Origin: Escherichia coli
GTDB taxonomy: Bacteria; Pseudomonadota; Gammaproteobacteria; Enterobacterales; Enterobacteriaceae
NCBI RefSeq assembly: GCF_001677475.2
Contig: NZ_CP015229.1
Reading direction: 5' to 3' (one strand)
DNA: 64,000 nucleotides
Shown: one piece after another, positions 20,622 through 45,955 of the stretch
How positions within the stretch are numbered: position 1 is the stretch's first letter
How the letters are laid out: the number at the start of each line of letters is the position of its first letter
The notes under the pieces: generated by a model
What the model was told of the DNA's origin: nothing
Seen by the model: only the letters and a program-made list of their open reading frames with translations
Database searches by the model: none
Translations under genes and position numbers: made by a program

Positions 20622-21536
20622 TTAATGAGCATAACGCGTGTTCTCATTAATGGATCGAATCATTGATTGTTTAGCTGAATTCAAATGGTTACGGAGCGCA
20701 AGGGTGGCATCAAGGTCACTGCGGCAAATCAGAGCGCTGAGAATGGTCATATGCTCATCGACGGCAATGATATTGCGCTGTTTAAGATCGCTTTCGTCCC
20801 ATTGATAGTGAAAATGAAAGATGACTGAGATGATCTCAAGCGATTGATCAAAAAAGATATTGTCGGCAGCTGAAAGCAGTAAGGAGTGAAAATCTCTGTC
20901 AAGTTGCGAGAACATGCGAAAGCTATTGCCGATGTTGTCACGCAGTAGCCGATGACGTTCGAGCATGGTTTTCGCCTGCAGCCAGCGGGGATCATGATCA
21001 GGCAGGTTGAGAAAGTGCTGAAGTGAATGTGTTTCGAGCATTTCGCGTAGCTCAAACAGCTGCTCGGCGTAGGATTGATCGAATTGTTTCATGCTCCACT
21101 GGCCGCGCTTTTCGCTTTGAATAAGATTATAACGGCCGAATTTTAAAAGATATTCTCTTACTACAACCGGGCTGACACCCGCGGCCCGAGCCAGTTGCAG
21201 TTCAGAAAAAGTTTCCCCAGGGCGTAACTGACGCTGGTTTATCATCGTGAAAAAAGCCTGCTCAAACACTTTGTTTTGTTCACTCATTGAAGCGGTAGTA
21301 CAGGCGAAACCGTCATCATGGTCAGGTTTACGCGCAATAACATAGTCGTTTCCAACCTGCGTTAAGACGCCGCATTCGCGTAAGTGGCTGAGAATATGAC
21401 GCACTGTAGTGCGGCTGATGTTGTACATTTCCGCCAGCGCACTTTGCGATGGAAGTGGGGAAGGGATATGACCCCGCGCCATATCATCAATGACCTGGTT
21501 AATCACATTGTGGCGTAAATTTTGTGAACGACTCAT
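20622..21536 (-). CDS. lgoR: GntR-family regulator LgoR (YjjM)
   Basis: ORF track 304 aa; N-terminal GntR HTH; synteny. Confidence 0.85.
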   Translation of the reverse strand: MSRSQNLRHNVINQVIDDMARGHIPSPLPSQSALAEMYNISRTTVRHILSHLRECGVLTQVGNDYVIARKPDHDDGFACTTASMSEQNKVFEQAFFTMINQRQLRPGETFSELQLARAAGVSPVVVREYLLKFGRYNLIQSEKRGQWSMKQFDQSYAEQLFELREMLETHSLQHFLNLPDHDPRWLQAKTMLERHRLLRDNIGNSFRMFSQLDRDFHSLLLSAADNIFFDQSLEIISVIFHFHYQWDESDLKQRNIIAVDEHMTILSALICRSDLDATLALRNHLNSAKQSMIRSINENTRYAH

Positions 21537-21674
21537 ATTTTCCTCCTTGTGAGTCCATTAAAACCCGATTTAAAACATTTTTATGCGTGTGTTTTCACAA
21601 AACAGATTTTCCGTTCCGCTGCCATTTTTCATTTTCATTGATATCTAAGGCAACAAAAAATGGAGAGCCGAATC

Positions 21675-25923: not shown

Positions 25924-26661
25924 TTAATACTCTTTACCTGTTACACGGCTACGGTAGCTATCCCAGTTGAAGATCACCCACAAACTGTTACCCAGGCGCA
26001 TACGGTCCATCACGCGTTCGCCCAGCAACTTGGTCATCTCTTCCATATTACTGTTGGTCAGCATCCCGGTTGGGCGTTTGGAAGAAGAGCGGCGATCGAC
26101 GATCTGGTTGATGATCACTTTTTCGTATTTCGATTCGGTCTGCACGCCGATCTCATCGATCACCAGCAGATCAACGTTACTCAGATCGTTAAGCAGTTGT
26201 TCTTCGCTTGTACCGCTATTCCTGAAGGTATCTTTCATCGCCGACATAATATCGGCCACGGTGATAATCAATACGGATTTACCGCGTAGCAGCAGTTCGT
26301 TGCAGATTGCCGCCGCCAGATGGTTTTTGCCGGTTCCTGGCTTACCAGAAAAGATGAAGCTGGCGATGTTGCCGTCAAACTCTTCGACATACTGGCGCGC
26401 TTTGCTTAACGCATTCATTTGCCCTTCACACTCAACGCGATAGTTCTCAAAGGAGCAGTTCTGATGCAGTGGACGAATACCGGAGCGGTTAAAGGTGCGC
26501 TGCATTTTCATCGCCCGATTTTCACGTTCGAGAGCGGCGGAGCGGATCGCCCCTTGTTCTTTCTGCCAGGCCAGTAGTTCTTCACCCGTTTTGAAAGCAG
26601 GTTTGATATGGGCAGGCATCATTTTTTGCAGGCGTTGCATCAGGTCGCCAACGTTTTTCAT
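25924..26661 (-). CDS. dnaC: DNA replication helicase loader DnaC
   Basis: ORF track 245 aa; MKNVGDLMQRLQKMMPAHIKPAF...; Walker A GKPGTGKNHLAAA. Confidence 0.95.
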   Translation of the reverse strand: MKNVGDLMQRLQKMMPAHIKPAFKTGEELLAWQKEQGAIRSAALERENRAMKMQRTFNRSGIRPLHQNCSFENYRVECEGQMNALSKARQYVEEFDGNIASFIFSGKPGTGKNHLAAAICNELLLRGKSVLIITVADIMSAMKDTFRNSGTSEEQLLNDLSNVDLLVIDEIGVQTESKYEKVIINQIVDRRSSSKRPTGMLTNSNMEEMTKLLGERVMDRMRLGNSLWVIFNWDSYRSRVTGKEY

Positions 26662-26663
26662 CG

Positions 26664-27203
26664 TTACCCTCTGAATCCTGGTGGAATTTGGCTGTCAGGT
26701 TCACTGACCGTATTCACATCTCGTTTCGGCAGTCCGCCGTTGCTGGCACGGCCGATTTGCAGGCTGCGCGCCAGTTTTTGTTGCCACTGTACATGGTGAA
26801 AGACTTTACCTTCCGCCTGCCAGTAGGCAATGAATGAGGCCAGTTCTTCGGTGGTCACCGGCTCTCTTAGCGCCACGCCCCATAGCGCCGCCAGGCGGAT
26901 AAAGTCGGCATCGGGTTGCCAGTCCGGATACATGGCGAATTTCCCCATGGGTACAGCAACGGGAGCAGCTTGCGGTTCCTGATAGAGTTGATCGTCCAGA
27001 GCGACATCGCTTCCCGGACGCGCCAGCTTTTCTTCCAGCGCCAGCAGTTCAGCCAGGCGTGCAGGCGTGACGGCATAAAACGCCGGGGCATTGTTAGCAA
27101 ATACGGCAACCACACCGCCTTCAGCTTTTGCCAGAACGGTTTGGTGATCGTGTACCAGGGCGTCAATACCAACGACGTCCGGGGTCAAAACTCTGGAAGA
27201 CAT
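26664..27203 (-). CDS. dnaT: Primosomal protein 1 DnaT
   Basis: ORF track 26664..27215; start at [17 protein letters not shown], 179 aa; ends ...[10 protein letters not shown]. Confidence 0.95.
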
Positions 27204-35427: not shown

Positions 35428-36663
35428 ATGGCGCTGTCTGATGCGTGGTTGCGTTCAGTCGTTGGAAAGGAACGTGATAAGGTTTTGGTTAAATCCGATC
35501 GTGATGGTCTGTCTGTCAGAGTATCACCGAAAGGTCGCGTAGTGTTCCAATATCGTTATCAATGGGCAGGGAAAGGTGAGCGCCTTGATATCGGAACTTA
35601 CCCGGCAACTGGATTAAAAGAGGCCAGAGAAGAAGTTATCCGTCTCCGTGGTGAACTCGAGTCAAACCGCAATCCACGATTAGTCAAGCAGGCTGAAAAA
35701 CGAAAAGCTACTGAAGCCATGACGGTAGAGTCTGTGATCCGTGCCTGGTATGAAGCATATTGTGTAAAAAATAAAAAAGGTTCTGAACAGATACTCCGCT
35801 CGTTTGAGCTGCACCTGTTCTCTAAAATCGGGAATATCCCTCACGATGCAGCTACATTGCATGATTGGTTAGAAGTCCTGGAGCCTCTTAGCACCAAGAC
35901 TCCAGCAATAGTAGACCGATTGCTAATTAACGCAAAGCAGGCTCATGTCTGGGCGTATAAGAGAAAGCTCATTGAAACTCGCCCACTGTCGGATATCACG
36001 GGTAAAGATATGGATATCCGTAAAGGTCAGAAAAAACGGTTTCTGACACATGATGAAATTAACATCCTTTATGCTGCGATCGATGGTTCTCGAATGGTTC
36101 CTAAATACCGAGCCTTCATTAAACTATTGCTGCATTTTGGTTGCCGTAGTTCAGAGCTAATTACTGCTAGGGTGGATGATTTTGATTTCATAAATAAGGT
36201 ATGGACTGTACCACCAGAACGACATAAGACTGGGGACATAACAGGCGAACCGCTAAAGCGGCCCATTATTGAACCGGTTGAAGAGCTTATAAAATACGTT
36301 ATCTCTATGAACAACGGTTCCGATATGCTTTTTACTAAGGAAGGAAGCAGGGAGCCAGTTGGTCGGACATCATTGCAGTCGCTGCCTTACAATTTAATGC
36401 AGTTCGCATGGCGACGTTTGGGGTATCAATTTCCTCATTGGTCTCTTCATGATTTGAGACGAACAGCACGAACAAACTTTTCTGATCTTACTGCTCCTCA
36501 TATTGCTGAAATAATGCTTGGTCATAAACTGCCAGGTGTATGGCAAGTTTATGATAAGAGCGATTATCTAGAAGAACAGCGTAAAGCTTACTGGGCATGG
36601 TGGGAGAGGGTTGAATCGATCGTTACTTGTACTGACTTAATCTCCAACGGACAGTTTGCGTAG
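35428..36663 (+). CDS. int: Phage tyrosine integrase
   Basis: ORF track 411 aa; C-terminal catalytic region with HDLRRTARTN and LGH..VYD motifs; RBS AAGGTGAG. Confidence 0.85.
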   Translation: MALSDAWLRSVVGKERDKVLVKSDRDGLSVRVSPKGRVVFQYRYQWAGKGERLDIGTYPATGLKEAREEVIRLRGELESNRNPRLVKQAEKRKATEAMTVESVIRAWYEAYCVKNKKGSEQILRSFELHLFSKIGNIPHDAATLHDWLEVLEPLSTKTPAIVDRLLINAKQAHVWAYKRKLIETRPLSDITGKDMDIRKGQKKRFLTHDEINILYAAIDGSRMVPKYRAFIKLLLHFGCRSSELITARVDDFDFINKVWTVPPERHKTGDITGEPLKRPIIEPVEELIKYVISMNNGSDMLFTKEGSREPVGRTSLQSLPYNLMQFAWRRLGYQFPHWSLHDLRRTARTNFSDLTAPHIAEIMLGHKLPGVWQVYDKSDYLEEQRKAYWAWWERVESIVTCTDLISNGQFA

Positions 36664-42083: not shown

Positions 42084-42627
42084 GCATCACTGGAAAGTGG
42101 AAAAACAGCCTGAGTGGTACGTGAAAGCTGTCAGAAAAACTATCGCGGCGTTGCCGGGGGGTTACGCTGAAGCTGCTGAGTGGCTGGATGTAACAGAGAA
42201 CGCTTTATTCAACCGCCTTCGTGCAGATGGCGATCAGATTTTCCCGCTGGGATGGGCAATGATTTTACAGCGCGCTGCTGGCACTCACTACATTGCGGAT
42301 GCTGTCGCACAGTCTGCTGGTGGGGTGTTTGTATCGCTTCCTGAAATTGAGGAAGTAGAGAACGCCGATATAAACCAGCGCCTGCTGGAAGTCATCGAAC
42401 AAATCGGGAGTTACTCAAAGCAGATTCGTTCGGCAATCGAAGATGGGGTAGTGGAGCCACACGAGCAGACAGCAATTAATGATGAGTTGTATCTGTCGAT
42501 TTCGAAGCTCCAGGAGCATGCGGCACTGGTCTACAAAATTTTCTGCGCTCCAGAAAAGAGTGACGCCCGCGAGTGTGCAGCTCCGGGCGTCGTGGCGTTT
42601 TGTGTCTGTGGAGAAACTAACGCATGA
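42076..42627 (+). CDS. Putative CII-like early regulatory protein
   Basis: ORF track 183 aa directly after cro; family assignment is a guess. Confidence 0.35.
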   Translation: MGKHHWKVEKQPEWYVKAVRKTIAALPGGYAEAAEWLDVTENALFNRLRADGDQIFPLGWAMILQRAAGTHYIADAVAQSAGGVFVSLPEIEEVENADINQRLLEVIEQIGSYSKQIRSAIEDGVVEPHEQTAINDELYLSISKLQEHAALVYKIFCAPEKSDARECAAPGVVAFCVCGETNA

Positions 42628-42952
42628 ACAGTTTAACGGCAAATAACCGTTTGTCGCAACAGCTGGTGGTCAGCGTCTCTGAACACCTGTTGTTACGGCA
42701 TGAATGCAGATTACCAAATCACCAGGCTGTAAGTAACCACAGAGAACTTTACCTGACTGTGGGGGGCGAGTTGTGCAGGAACTTAACCGCTGGTTTCGTG
42801 ACGGAAGAGGGCTTTATGTTCATGTTATTCGTTGGGAACCAGAAACACAGCGCGTTATCTATCTTCGCAAAGACTACCCGCATGAGTGCTTTAGTCCTTT
42901 GTGGAAATTCAGGCGTGATTTTGTTGAGTGTGACGGACCACCAACACATTGA
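42624..42952 (+). pseudogene. Putative frameshifted early gene (~109 aa if restored) interrupted at a G6 tract
   Basis: ATG at 42624 overlaps upstream stop (ATGA); at G-run 42761-42766 the protein-like reading moves to another frame (VQELNRWFRDGRGLYVHVIRWEPETQRVIYLRKDYPHE...) ending TGA 42950-42952. Confidence 0.35.
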
Positions 42953-43229
42953 TTCTGCCATTCCGGGACGTTACACTGTTCAGGCACCTTATAAAACGGG
43001 TGCCGGGCGTGGAAACCCGGAATTCACCAAAGCGCACAACCGCGCTCTTGCGGTTTTTTTGTGTCATGAGCAGCATTACGCCCAAATTATGGTGGGGCGT
43101 GCAGGGCCAACTTCGGTTGGGCCGGGTTCTTTGGTGACCGGTATTTCCACCCCTGTACGTCTCACCACCAATAAGGTCGTGGAAAGCCTTGGTGGTGAGT
43201 TATTAAAAATCACCAAAGAGGCTGCCATC

Positions 43230-43775
43230 ATGGCTACGATCCCAACCCTCACTCAACCTGAAATTGCCATCGTTGATGGTCAGGTTGTTACTTCATCCCT
43301 GGCTGTTGCCAACTTCTTCTCCAAACGTCATGACGATGTACTGAAAAAGATCCGCACGCTTGAATGCTCAGCATCATTCACTGCCCGCAATTTTTCGGTG
43401 AGTGATTACACTGATTGCACAGGTCGCAAACTTCATTGCTACCAAATCACACGCGACGGTTTTGCGTTTCTTGCTATGGGTTTCACGGGTAAACGTGCTG
43501 CCCAGTTCAAAGAGGCATATATCAATGCCTTTAACCAGATGGAGAAACAGCTTTCAAAGCCCGCTGTACCGAGCGACGTTGCACATAACGCCAGCGTTCT
43601 CTGTTCCTACATTTCATCAATTCATCAGGTCTGGCTGCAGCAGCTTTATCCTATGTTGGCAAAAGCCGAATCTCCGCTGGCTGTTAGCTTATATGATTAT
43701 ATTAATGATGCTTCGGCGCTGGCCTGCCTCATAAATTTGTCGCTGAACCCTTCAGAGGTAAGGGGGCGCAAATGA
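43230..43775 (+). CDS. rha: Rha-family phage regulatory protein
   Basis: In-frame ATG with AAGAGG RBS inside ORF-track 42624..43775; MATIPTLTQPEIAIVDGQVVTSSLAVANFFSKRHDDVLKKI matches Rha domain. Confidence 0.65.
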   Translation: MATIPTLTQPEIAIVDGQVVTSSLAVANFFSKRHDDVLKKIRTLECSASFTARNFSVSDYTDCTGRKLHCYQITRDGFAFLAMGFTGKRAAQFKEAYINAFNQMEKQLSKPAVPSDVAHNASVLCSYISSIHQVWLQQLYPMLAKAESPLAVSLYDYINDASALACLINLSLNPSEVRGRK

Positions 43776-43996
43776 TCCGGAATATTTTCAAACGTTTTAC
43801 CAATCAGACTTTCCGTTGTCCTCGTCCGGGTCAGTGGTACACCACGCCTGCAGGGCATGTTCTACGTGTTAGCCTGGTTGACCGTGAATGTCAGAAGGTG
43901 GTTTGTGAACCGCTGGGCCGTAATTACCGCGTCAGTATGCCGCTTATAGCCTTTTGCTCCGGAAAAAACATGAAGCATCTCGGAGGTGCAGCATGA
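43772..43996 (+). CDS. Hypothetical small phage protein (74 aa)
   Basis: ORF track; ATGA overlap with rha stop. Confidence 0.4.
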   Translation: MIRNIFKRFTNQTFRCPRPGQWYTTPAGHVLRVSLVDRECQKVVCEPLGRNYRVSMPLIAFCSGKNMKHLGGAA

Positions 43997-44811
43997 GTAT
44001 GGAGCTGATGGTTAAAGCGATGAAAATTCGAGTGGGTAATCCATTGCGAAAACTGGTTCTGATCAAGCTGGCTGATAATGCCAGCGATCAGGGTGAGTGC
44101 TGGCCCAGCTACCAGCATATTGCTGACCAGTGCGAGATTAGCAAACGTTCTGTGATGAATCATATTGCGGCCCTTTGTGATTCCGGGCTGGTAAAAAAAG
44201 TCACCCGGAAAGGTGAAAAAGGTAACTCAAGTAATATCTATCTCCTTCATCTTGATGGTGCAGGAGATTCACTAGGGGGTAGTGCAAATAATTCACTATC
44301 TGGTGCAGCAAATTCACCAGGTAGTGCAGGAGTTGCACCAGGGGGTGGTGCAGGAGATTCACCCAGAACCAGTCACTCTTTTGAACCAGTCAAAGAACCA
44401 GTCAATGAACCAATAGCTGTTGGTGCATCTGCTGATGAGTCTGTGCGAGTTCGTTCAAACCGACCGGAATACTCTCCGGAGTTTGAGCAGGCATGGCTGG
44501 CATACCCCAAACGTGCTGGTGGCAATTCAAAATCTGCAGCCTTCAAAGCCTGGAAAGCCCGTTTGAATGAGGGGGTAAAACCCGAAACCATGCTGGAAGG
44601 TGTGAAACGCTACGCGGGCTGGGTATCTGCGATGGGTAACAGCGGCACACAATTTGTGAAACAGGCTGTCACGTTCTTTGGTCCGGATCGTCATTTCGAA
44701 GAATCCTGGGAAGTTCCTGCGGTATCTGCAGCCAGACGCGAGGACCCGTACTTCAAAGCCAGTTACGACAACGTGGACTACAGCCAGATCCCGGCAGGAT
44801 TCAGGGGGTAA
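43993..44811 (+). CDS. Phage replisome organiser with DnaT-like C-terminal domain
   Basis: ORF track 43954..44811; N-terminal HTH (LIKLADNASDQGECWPSYQHIADQCEISKRSVMNHIAAL); Gly/Ser/Ala linker; C-terminus ...DYSQIPAGFRG close to host DnaT ...[10 protein letters not shown]. Confidence 0.65.
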   Translation: MSMELMVKAMKIRVGNPLRKLVLIKLADNASDQGECWPSYQHIADQCEISKRSVMNHIAALCDSGLVKKVTRKGEKGNSSNIYLLHLDGAGDSLGGSANNSLSGAANSPGSAGVAPGGGAGDSPRTSHSFEPVKEPVNEPIAVGASADESVRVRSNRPEYSPEFEQAWLAYPKRAGGNSKSAAFKAWKARLNEGVKPETMLEGVKRYAGWVSAMGNSGTQFVKQAVTFFGPDRHFEESWEVPAVSAARREDPYFKASYDNVDYSQIPAGFRG

Positions 44812-44813
44812 TC

Positions 44814-45302
44814 ATGAGTCTTTTGAATGAAGTTCAGAAATTCATTGAAGCCCATCCGGGGTGTACTTCCGGAGACATTGCAGATGCTTTTGCAGGTTAC
44901 TCACGGCAGCGCGTTCTGCAGTCAGCAAGCAAGTTACGTCAGAGTGGGCGTGTGGCTCACCGTTGTGAAGGAGATACACGCAGACATTTCCCGCGCCTGA
45001 CTGAGAGAGCGCAGGAGCCGGAACCACAACCAGTTCGTGAAACCAGACCTGTGCGCAATTTCTATGTCGGCACTAACGATCCCCGGGTAATTTTGTGCCT
45101 GACCCGCCAGGCTGAAGAACTGGAGTCCAGGGGCTTATACCGTCGTGCTGCAACCGTGTGGATGGCGGCATTCCGTGAAAGCCACTCCCAGTCAGAACGA
45201 AACAATTTTCTGGCGCGCCGTGAGCGGTGCTTACGGAAAAGCAGCAAGCGCGCTGTATCGGGTGATGAGTGGTATCTGTCAGGGAATTACGTGGGGGCTT
45301 AA
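44814..45302 (+). CDS. PerC-family-like transcriptional regulator
   Basis: ORF track 162 aa; LESRGLYRRAATVWMAAF...RRERC resembles PerC/Pch motif. Confidence 0.5.
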   Translation: MSLLNEVQKFIEAHPGCTSGDIADAFAGYSRQRVLQSASKLRQSGRVAHRCEGDTRRHFPRLTERAQEPEPQPVRETRPVRNFYVGTNDPRVILCLTRQAEELESRGLYRRAATVWMAAFRESHSQSERNNFLARRERCLRKSSKRAVSGDEWYLSGNYVGA

Positions 45303-45955
45303 TGAGTAATAAATATTGCCAGGCGCTGGTGGAACTGCGGAACAAACCAGCCCATGAACTGAAGGAAGTGGGCGATCAGTGGCGCACGCCGGACAACATT
45401 TTCTGGGGAATTAACACCCTGTTTGGCCCGTTTGTTCTGGATCTGTTCACCGACGGTGATAACGCCAAATGTGCCGCGTATTACACGGCGGAAGACAATG
45501 CGCTGGCGCATGACTGGTCAGAACGTCTTGCGGAGCTTAAAGGTGCTGCCTTTGGTAATCCCCCATACAGCCGCGCCAGTCAGCATGAGGGGCAATACAT
45601 CACCGGCATGCGTTACATCATGAAGCATGCCAGTGCCATGCGTGATAAGGGCGGACGCTATGTTTTCCTGATCAAAGCTGCCACCAGCGAAGTGTGGTGG
45701 CCGGAAGATGCAGATCATATTGCTTTTATTCGCGGGCGTATTGGTTTTGAAGTGCCTGCCTGGTTTATCCCGAAAGACGAGAAGCAGGTGCCGACAGGCG
45801 CTTTCTTCGCTGGTGCTATTGCTGTTTTCGATAAGACCTGGAAGGGACCGGCAATCAGCTACATCGGGCGCGATGAACTTGAGGCATGTGGTGAGGCGTT
45901 TCTGGCGCAGGTTCGCCAGCAGGCAGAACGGCTGGTCAGGGAGATAGTGGCATGA
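45302..45955 (+). CDS. Phage DNA N6-adenine methyltransferase (Dam-like)
   Basis: ORF track 45269..45955; start at MSNKYCQALVEL; catalytic NPPY motif (FGNPPYS). Confidence 0.7.
   Translation: MSNKYCQALVELRNKPAHELKEVGDQWRTPDNIFWGINTLFGPFVLDLFTDGDNAKCAAYYTAEDNALAHDWSERLAELKGAAFGNPPYSRASQHEGQYITGMRYIMKHASAMRDKGGRYVFLIKAATSEVWWPEDADHIAFIRGRIGFEVPAWFIPKDEKQVPTGAFFAGAIAVFDKTWKGPAISYIGRDELEACGEAFLAQVRQQAERLVREIVA

Follow-up and report, generated by a model that had tools for sequence, protein, structure and literature searches.

A DnaT-type C-terminal tail on the replication initiator of a lambdoid Escherichia coli prophage and on other mobile-element initiators

The Initiator Gene and Its Setting

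We analyzed a 64,000-nt stretch of an Escherichia coli chromosome (contig NZ_CP015229.1; hereafter the window), which contains part of a lambdoid prophage running from an integrase gene near 35428 to beyond the window end. The gene under study is the replication initiator gene of its early rightward operon (43993-44811, + strand; 272 amino acids (aa) plus stop). A sequence-only reading had proposed an open reading frame (ORF) at this place for a phage replisome organizer with a DnaT-like C-terminus, and the ORF is borne out by its translation and by RefSeq WP_000061487.1, a "helix-turn-helix domain-containing protein." The gene is 100% identical to genes of strains S88 and APEC O1, its protein is 100% identical in phage 2H10, and a match to it was found in 2,717 of 5,426 complete E. 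coli genomes, covering at least 80% of the gene length in 896. Taken alone, the gene is an ordinary, very common prophage component. The main interest is rather the peptide tail of its product, which ends IPAGFRG and is of a type (IPxGFRG) common to the host primosomal protein DnaT and to unrelated initiators of mobile elements.

The protein matches phrog_270, "replication initiation protein" (PHROGs, E = 1.5e-88), and its PHROG relatives carry the label "replication initiation O-like." The operon order is cI-like, cro-like, YmfL, Ash/Rha, a 74-aa ORF, initiator, PerC-like, RusA, KilA-N, DUF968 and Q, which puts the initiator between the immunity/cro genes and nin/Q, the position of a lambda-O-type gene.

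Host dnaT lies in the same window (26664-27203, - strand; NCBIfam PRK02854, E = 2.8e-105; Pfam DnaT domain at aa 89-154), and its last seven codons (26667-26687) encode IPPGFRG. It is translationally coupled to the helicase loader gene dnaC (25924-26661, - strand; named from the annotation of the identical S88 region), whose product is our candidate partner for the tail. The spacing of about 17 kb between dnaT and the initiator gene, to which attention had been drawn, is correct as a distance. Other E. coli genomes carry the identical gene at many different chromosomal loci, so the spacing is coincidental, and a functional meaning for it was ruled out.

Domain Anatomy and Relation to DnaT

The initiator has three parts. 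The N-terminal domain (about aa 1-90) contains a winged-helix DNA-binding core at aa 17-67 (44041-44193, + strand) that matches Pfam HTH_36 with E = 2.8e-11, above the cutoff, in agreement with the N-terminal helix-turn-helix (HTH) domain expected from sequence; a DnaD_N match is weak (23.2 bits, below the Pfam cutoff of 27). This domain is conserved among the relatives from a representative search (13,494 matches at E <= 1e-3). Beyond a Gly/Ser/Ala linker comes a small helical C-terminal domain (aa 160-239; 44470-44709, + strand) with the motifs YPKRAGGN ... TFFGP, which is not a DnaT domain; the C-terminal half of the protein has no Pfam match, including none to the lambda-O-type C-terminal domain. 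The N- and C-terminal halves match separate PHROG families, a hint of modular construction. The last part is a disordered 24-aa tail, REDPYFKASYDNVDYSQIPAGFRG (44737-44808, + strand), with block-mean pLDDT (predicted local distance difference test) of 54-66, whose core IPAGFRG (44788-44808) is the DnaT-type motif. The C-terminus reads ...NVDYSQIPAGFRG, or over a longer stretch ...YDNVDYSQIPAGFRG.

BLASTP aligned SQIPAGFRG of the initiator with SQIPPGFRG of DnaT (8/9 identical), with a pairwise E of 0.01 that takes no account of both matches sitting at the extreme C-terminus. The DnaT-like ending is present, as had been claimed, and likeness at the level of a domain is not: the alignment with DnaT comprises the last nine residues only. 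The DnaT N-terminal oligomerization domain and acidic PriB-binding linker are missing (no BLASTP alignment outside the tail, no NCBIfam DnaT match), as is the three-helix C-terminal domain of DnaT that binds single-stranded DNA (ssDNA; PF17948). Judged by these comparisons the initiator is not a DnaT homolog. Some annotation pipelines, which evidently detect the DnaT similarity, label such relatives "primosomal protein I," a name that would misfile the gene.

The Tail in DnaT and on Mobile-Element Initiators

In 16 aligned DnaT orthologs, 70-85% identical to the E. coli protein, residues I173, P174, G176, F177, R178 and G179 are invariant; the ~15 residues before them vary, and the tail codons vary synonymously. 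The residue x of IPxGFRG is P, R, K, T, F, Q or H among DnaT orthologs, so the phage A at this position is plausibly tolerated. Among the 120 matches listed, DnaT endings are commonly [EQ]PD[SN][QH]IP[PR]GFRG, with a minority of PDKxIPxGFRGAK. Our DnaT contig scan (patterns QWQQKLAR and YWQAEGK) covered Enterobacteriaceae only, at 69-95% identity.

Scans of viral contigs with degenerate codons, each pattern ending in a stop codon, yielded at least 119 matches for IPPGFRG, at least 119 for IPAGFRG, and 32 for IPxGFRGAK. Nearly all of these are the 3′ ends of initiator-like ORFs of 250-400 aa. By sequence signatures, the tail follows at least six classes of penultimate domain, combined with at least four N-terminal DNA-binding domains. 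Class A has the signature ...SPxKLREKWD; class B, that of the window initiator, YPKRAGGN...TFFGP; class C is YdaU-type, as in YdaU of the Rac prophage; class D is a genuine DnaT C-terminal domain, as in gp46 of Salmonella phage SPN1S (Pfam DnaT domain, E = 3.9e-18); class E has ...ARGIKKF and class F ...KFxxYLxSA. The GFRGAK variant, with PDK upstream, is found both in DnaT of some genera and in the 32 phage initiators.

Some 50 other prophages have the identical 24-aa tail on an unrelated class A domain (SPSKLREKWD). Likewise, searching with the C-terminal region of the initiator found it on a different domain in P0101 and P0097 (the latter named "Primosomal protein I" by a source), together with same-domain relatives ending QRCVNQISEPDTEIPPGFRG. 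The 17-24 aa upstream of the tail core are also conserved as protein.

The tail is not restricted to phages. RepA of plasmid pGN2-KPC (IncX6/IncU, Proteus; NZ_MF156710.1, 1-1029; Pfam RPA, E = 3.4e-75) ends EPDSEIPPGFRG, ...NPGEPDSEIPPGFRG, and like matches occur in about two dozen Klebsiella and Proteus plasmids of 31-49 kb. Serratia plasmids also gave like matches, annotated "replication initiation protein." All organisms named in the phage and plasmid tail matches are Enterobacterales; homologs from Vibrio and Burkholderia phages are without the tail.

Taken together, the sequence comparisons identify the tail as a real shared module and not a chance match, a portable peptide borne by many unrelated phage and plasmid initiators. 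Literature searches aimed at the motif and at the DnaT C-terminus found no paper describing a tail shared by DnaT and initiators.

Other recurrent endings were seen among HTH_36 initiator relatives from other hosts. P0258, P0260, P0272, P0285, P0333 and P0350 end ...NIHDTDW / ...DTSW..., and P0244, P0319, P0346, P0358 and P0364 end ...HxGFxxRDYxxGL...(D/E)DG(S/T)YxF. These alternative endings may be docking tails for other helicase systems. One ...NIHDTDW relative that was examined stands alone.

Helicase and Loader Genes Beside the Tail

The survey took in the next one to three ORFs downstream of each tail-bearing initiator that is 200 aa or longer (217 in all). Contig ends cut some loci short, and 37 initiators have no more than one ORF downstream. 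A DnaC/YdaV-like loader gene, its product ~50% identical to host DnaC, lies 3′ of the initiator in 65 cases. A DnaB-like helicase or lambda-P-like gene was found 3′ of none of the 217. For class B, to which the window initiator belongs, 55 cases are without a loader and nine have one. In phage 2H10, none of the genes annotated in the complete 46.3-kb genome is for a helicase, loader, primase or polymerase.

Four same-domain relatives lack the tail (P0270, P0236, P0245 and that of Stx1 phage EH1992), and each is followed by an IstB-like loader and a DnaB-like helicase; the first three end ...GFxxR(D/E)YGxT.... The contrast between tail and helicase rests on these four loci, a small sample that is not phylogenetically independent. 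A locus search with the C-terminal domain alignment returned 80 near-identical copies of the window gene and was uninformative for this contrast. One relative with a variant tail, IPDGFTGYLP, has only a DnaC-like loader downstream.

On these neighbor gene counts, the tail appears to mark modules that depend on host DnaB loaded by a DnaC-family protein. The window initiator has neither the P-binding C-terminal domain nor the adjacent P or loader gene of the lambda O system. Helicase loading must depend on host proteins, as P-type, loader and helicase genes are all missing from its module. The proposal that the phage protein is a replisome organizer recruiting the host primosome, instead of providing O/P-type functions, accordingly stands in part: it is an initiator with a winged-helix domain of the origin-binding type and a DnaT-type tail, in a module without P, loader or helicase gene, and it is nonetheless of the lambda O type.

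Iterons and the Probable Origin

The DNA encoding the Gly/Ser/Ala linker contains five 15-bp dyad-symmetric iterons, GTGCA-N5-TKCAC (44258-44362, + strand), starting at 44258, 44282, 44303, 44324 and 44348, at intervals (24/21/21/24 bp) of roughly two helical turns. Repeated DNA under this linker had been noticed from the sequence alone. Counting both strands there are six matches to the motif, all of them within 44258-44362 and none elsewhere in the window, against an expectation of 0.45 per 64-kb window; none of 100 shuffles reached six.

It had also been suggested that the linker could vary in length. We found it to be 39 aa in 31 of the 31 viral-contig alleles where it could be delimited, with the five iterons and their spacing kept in most alleles (two allele patterns lack an exact match to one copy). 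Constant length and kept spacing argue against slippage-driven variation, and a slippage-prone linker was ruled out; the 268- and 276-aa variants of the initiator differ outside the linker.

The homolog from Vibrio phage D67 (48% identical) has three copies of GTGAC-N5-GTCAC, spaced 21/24, at the corresponding place in the gene. Other relatives each have their own repeated linker peptide, and then the conserved PRTSHSxEPVxEP. In the window the corresponding DNA comprises three copies of (A/T)GAACCAGTCA directly after the iterons (44365-44404), which encode the family-conserved peptide SHSFEPVKEPVNEP and could form an origin element, either an unwinding or a host-factor site. The stretch PRTSHS(F/L)EPVxEP is the best conserved outside the HTH in nearly all relatives; this conservation may be at the DNA level, for an origin element, rather than at the protein level.

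Because of the iteron anatomy, we consider it likeliest that the phage origin lies within the initiator gene and is bound by the N-terminal domain of the product.

DnaC as Candidate Partner of the Tail

How the PriA-PriB-DnaT preprimosome recruits DnaB/DnaC is an acknowledged gap (PMC13377028, PMC5778457, PMC11087952, PMC13220808), and no contact of DnaT with DnaC or with DnaB is documented (PMC5778457, PMC11087952, PMC13377028). The 2026 cryo-electron microscopy description of the preprimosome does not include DnaT 154-179, the added DnaT C-terminal domains having been docked from the 84-153 crystal structure (PMC13377028). On the side of the loader, dnaC1331 (A84Y) specifically blocks loading dependent on PriA/PriB/DnaT (PMC11087952).

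We joined DnaC, or a phage DnaC-like loader, by a 30-residue glycine-serine linker to its cognate 26-residue tail and modeled the fusion with AlphaFold2, on an alignment of 27 sequences paired in nature, 12 from host dnaT-dnaC loci and 15 from phage loci. In the model of DnaC with DnaT 154-179, pLDDT is 31-37 in the linker but averages 83 over residues 291-300, with a beta-bridge at residue 300, which suggests a predicted docked state of the tail.

Covariation was examined in 78 Enterobacteriaceae dnaT-dnaC loci. Only DnaC positions 79 and 228 have disjoint residue sets according to tail type: position 79 is E or D with GFRG tails and Q with GFRGAK tails, and position 228 is W with the former and Y or F with the latter, the switch occurring exactly in the nine GFRGAK species. 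Positions that rank next in information fall into two groups, 75-87 and 204-232; A84, flanked by the first group, is invariant among host DnaC proteins and phage DnaC-like loaders alike. P79 of the phage GAK-type loaders is specific to lineage and not to tail. The genus names Citrobacter and Lelliottia each include both tail types, pointing to movement or inheritance of the dnaT-dnaC block as a whole. A search for DnaC-specific residues by comparison with IstB-like loaders was uninformative at 28-33% identity. That the tail is confined to hosts with DnaC agrees more readily with DnaC as partner than with DnaB, which is universal. From the covariation and the model together, DnaC is ranked first as the most likely direct partner of the tail.

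Junctions, Codons and Ancestry

The end of the initiator gene also serves the next gene. At the junction AGGGGG-TAA-TC-ATG (44803-44816, + strand), the last two codons (the rare Arg codon AGG and GGG) double as a Shine-Dalgarno-like sequence for the PerC-like gene. The phage sequence here, GGATTCAGGGGGTAA-tc-ATG, is similar to GGATTCAGAGGGTAA-cg-ATGAAAAAC between host dnaT and dnaC; the geometry is the same (AGAGGG-TAA-CG-ATG in the host, 26659-26672), and the junctions before phage DnaC-like genes (...TTCAGGGGGTAA-N6-ATGAAAAAT) also resemble that of the host. The penultimate Arg codon is the rare AGG or AGA in phage and host, and with GGG and the stop codon it forms a Shine-Dalgarno-like run 2-6 nt before the next ATG. 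One stretch carries both a peptide constraint and a translation-signal constraint.

There is published evidence for the domestication of dnaC-type loaders from phages, and DopC is a protein combining HTH_36 with DnaT_C (PMC5509034). These two points, the class D initiators and the likeness of the junctions all fit a shared ancestry, and suggest that the unit of DnaT C-terminal domain plus tail, followed by DnaC, is related by descent to a phage initiator-loader module, and that the tail then spread by mosaic recombination.

Proposed Mechanism and Alternatives

The model that we think probable, with reservations, is that of a solo O-type initiator with an in-gene origin and a DnaT-type tail that recruits host DnaB-DnaC, likeliest through DnaC. 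The gene would encode the sole replication protein of the prophage, a three-part O-type initiator. Its N-terminal winged-helix domain would bind the five iterons in its own linker-coding DNA, which would be the phage origin; the small helical C-terminal domain (YPKRAGGN...TFFGP), of a widespread phage family, would possibly serve in oligomerization or ssDNA contact. The flexible IPxGFRG tail would be a docking peptide, equivalent to the invariant end of DnaT, the adaptor that delivers DnaB/DnaC to the restart preprimosome. Through recombination, many unrelated initiators of Enterobacterales phages and plasmids would have acquired it. With no lambda-P-type protein needed, the tail of the origin-bound initiator would then bring host DnaB-DnaC to the opened origin, or DnaB together with a phage DnaC-like loader.

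A more specific extension is offered as a tentative possibility. IPxGFRG may be the missing element that recruits DnaB-DnaC to the restart preprimosome. It would dock on DnaC in the region that is altered in dnaC1331 (A84Y), near helix 79-88 and strand 227-231. Phage and plasmid initiators would have copied or shared it, dnaT-dnaC would be a domesticated phage initiator-loader module, and the tails of other hosts (...DTDW; ...RDYxxG...DGSYxF) would match other helicase systems, implying a general "tail code" that connects initiators with helicase loaders.

Several points weigh against the model of DnaC-mediated recruitment. There is no clear A+T-rich unwinding region after the iterons, where the GC content of 0.40-0.475 is only mildly A+T-rich; the lambda origin is A+T-rich. 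The invariance of the tail in the viral scans is partly by construction, as the patterns required those residues; the unbiased evidence of constraint comes from the DnaT orthologs and from relatives found through the domain and not through the tail. Part of the conservation could also be at the RNA level, since the tail codons overlap the Shine-Dalgarno-like run. The link from tail to partner rests on an uncontrolled AlphaFold fusion and on covariation: the fusion had no scrambled-tail control, its chains are covalently tethered, and its output is pLDDT and secondary structure only, while the GAK-type loci form one dnaC gene clade, so that the covariation may be a single evolutionary event, and five phage GAK-type loaders keep W228. 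Lastly, comparison of DnaT 84-153 with 84-179 showed that the C-terminal segment affects cooperative ssDNA binding (PMC4132743), so the tail could instead act within DnaT filaments.

That last finding bears on what we regard as an unlikely alternative, in which the tail docks on PriA, PriB or DnaT, not on DnaC or DnaB, and the initiator seeds a PriA-type primosome or joins or nucleates DnaT filaments on the unwound strand. In DnaT a conserved hydrophobic interface makes the contact with PriA and the linker that with PriB (PMC13377028), cooperative ssDNA binding is weaker in DnaT without residues 154-179 (PMC4132743), and some phage initiators carry the whole ssDNA-binding DnaT C-terminal domain plus the tail. 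The PriA interface, however, belongs to the folded DnaT C-terminal domain docked from the 84-153 structure, not to the tail (PMC13377028); moreover 30% of tail-bearing initiators have a DnaC-like gene directly coupled to them, the tail is also found on plasmid RepA and on initiators without a DnaT-like ssDNA-binding domain, and its confidence was raised in the presence of DnaC in the fusion model. To direct binding of the tail to the DnaB helicase, with the DnaC-family loader merely accompanying DnaB, we give a little less credence again. It would agree with the fact that the tail never occurs beside a phage DnaB-like helicase (0/217) while the four tail-less relatives carry their own helicase, and older primosome biochemistry has DnaT remaining with DnaB once DnaC has departed. 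Yet DnaB is universal and the tail is seen only in elements of Enterobacterales, whose hosts have DnaC and DnaT, and the covariation and AlphaFold signals point to DnaC.

Two further explanations are much less credible. The tail might have no function as a peptide, being a recombination scar of the dnaT(3′)-dnaC junction kept as an AGG-GGG-TAA ribosome-binding site and coupling signal for the next gene; the similar host and phage junctions described above, with their rare Arg codon, GGG and stop just before the next ATG, would be expected from this, as would the DnaC-like gene after 65 of the 217 tails. We hold it to be improbable: the I, P, G and F codons upstream of the Shine-Dalgarno-like run vary synonymously in DnaT orthologs while the residues are fixed, some phage tails end in CGC-GGT and keep the peptide with no such run, the 17-24-aa stretch before the core is conserved as protein, and the tail persists on plasmid RepA and before unrelated genes (PerC-like, methylase and others). 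More improbable still is that the initiator is a domain-level DnaT homolog, a phage-encoded DnaT. Comparison by hhalign of the C-terminal domain family with DnaT, tails included, gave 69% probability (E = 4.5e-5), and the "primosomal protein I" labels point the same way; for the window protein this explanation is refuted by the domain comparisons above. The idea that the tail is a clamp-binding or SSB-Ct-like motif was dropped, because the tail has neither a conserved Q nor an acidic run and ends in RG.

Other Genes of the Early Operon

The initiator is followed by the PerC-like gene (44814-45302), and then by methylase and RusA genes. The methylase-like gene is a 228-aa ORF with an NPPY motif (adenine-methylase-like; 45269-45955); S88 (locus 21310-21636) and phage 2H10 have a LexA-like gene in its place. 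This swap is a mosaic exchange adjoining the replication gene.

Upstream, a 383-aa ORF (42624-43775) has an Ash domain at aa 117-213, a Rha domain at aa 223-308, and an N-terminal 116 aa without a Pfam match; its 2H10 counterpart is far shorter (546 nt) and annotated "putative antirepressor." The 74-aa ORF that follows (43772-43996) has no Pfam match and overlaps the initiator start by 4 nt (ATGA), which suggests that the two are translationally coupled. A small ORF is annotated at its position in S88 and 2H10.

Significance

A seven-residue tail that is invariant in DnaT and recurs on initiators without a helicase gene is a concrete candidate for the contact from DnaT to DnaB/DnaC, and an evolutionary link between dnaT-dnaC and phage replication modules. 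If the proposed model is true, it would account for replication in the "initiator-only" lambdoid phages that are common in E. coli, and the tail would serve naturally as a peptide competing with replication restart. For annotation, "HTH domain protein" understates the gene as "primosomal protein I" misfiles it, and the probable origin inside the coding sequence should be flagged.

Comparison with Known Systems

The closest resemblance in layout is to lambda O and ori-lambda. Both are early-operon initiators of the origin-binding kind with an N-terminal DNA-binding domain and four to five dyad-symmetric iterons at ~20-24-bp spacing, located mid-gene in linker-coding DNA; lambda O has four annotated iterons at a comparable gene position. 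Unlike lambda O, the window initiator has no lambda-P partner gene, its N-terminus is of the HTH_36 type, it bears the DnaT-type tail, and the DNA after its iterons is not clearly A+T-rich.

With E. coli DnaT (primosomal protein i), the initiator shares the IPxGFRG end after a disordered stretch and the same geometry of the junction with the next gene. It differs in lacking the DnaT N-terminal domain and three-helix C-terminal domain, and in its predicted binding to a duplex origin by the winged-helix domain instead of joining PriA/PriB. SPN1S gp46 and Rac YdaU are phage initiators with the same tail, and SPN1S is also initiator-solo. The former differs by its complete Pfam DnaT domain and YdaU-like N-terminal domain, the latter by another C-terminal domain and the DnaC-like YdaV that follows it.

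The short conserved end of the disordered SSB C-terminal tail (...DDDIPF) recruits replication and repair partners. An SSB-PriA interaction has been cited (PMC5778457). We use this tail as a working analogy only; that of the initiator has another sequence, no acidic run, and moves between unrelated proteins by recombination.

DopC of Cellvibrionales and Oceanospirillales likewise has an O-like HTH_36 N-terminus and, joined to it, a C-terminal element related to DnaT (Brezellec et al., 2017; PMC5509034), and has been discussed together with DnaT-DnaC and lambda O-P as part of a phage-derived helicase-management pair (PMC5509034). DopC is chromosomal, reportedly without iterons, with a DnaT_C domain (HHpred to 2RU8) and a P-like partner, DopE (PMC5509034), whereas the window initiator has iterons, no DnaT domain and no partner gene.

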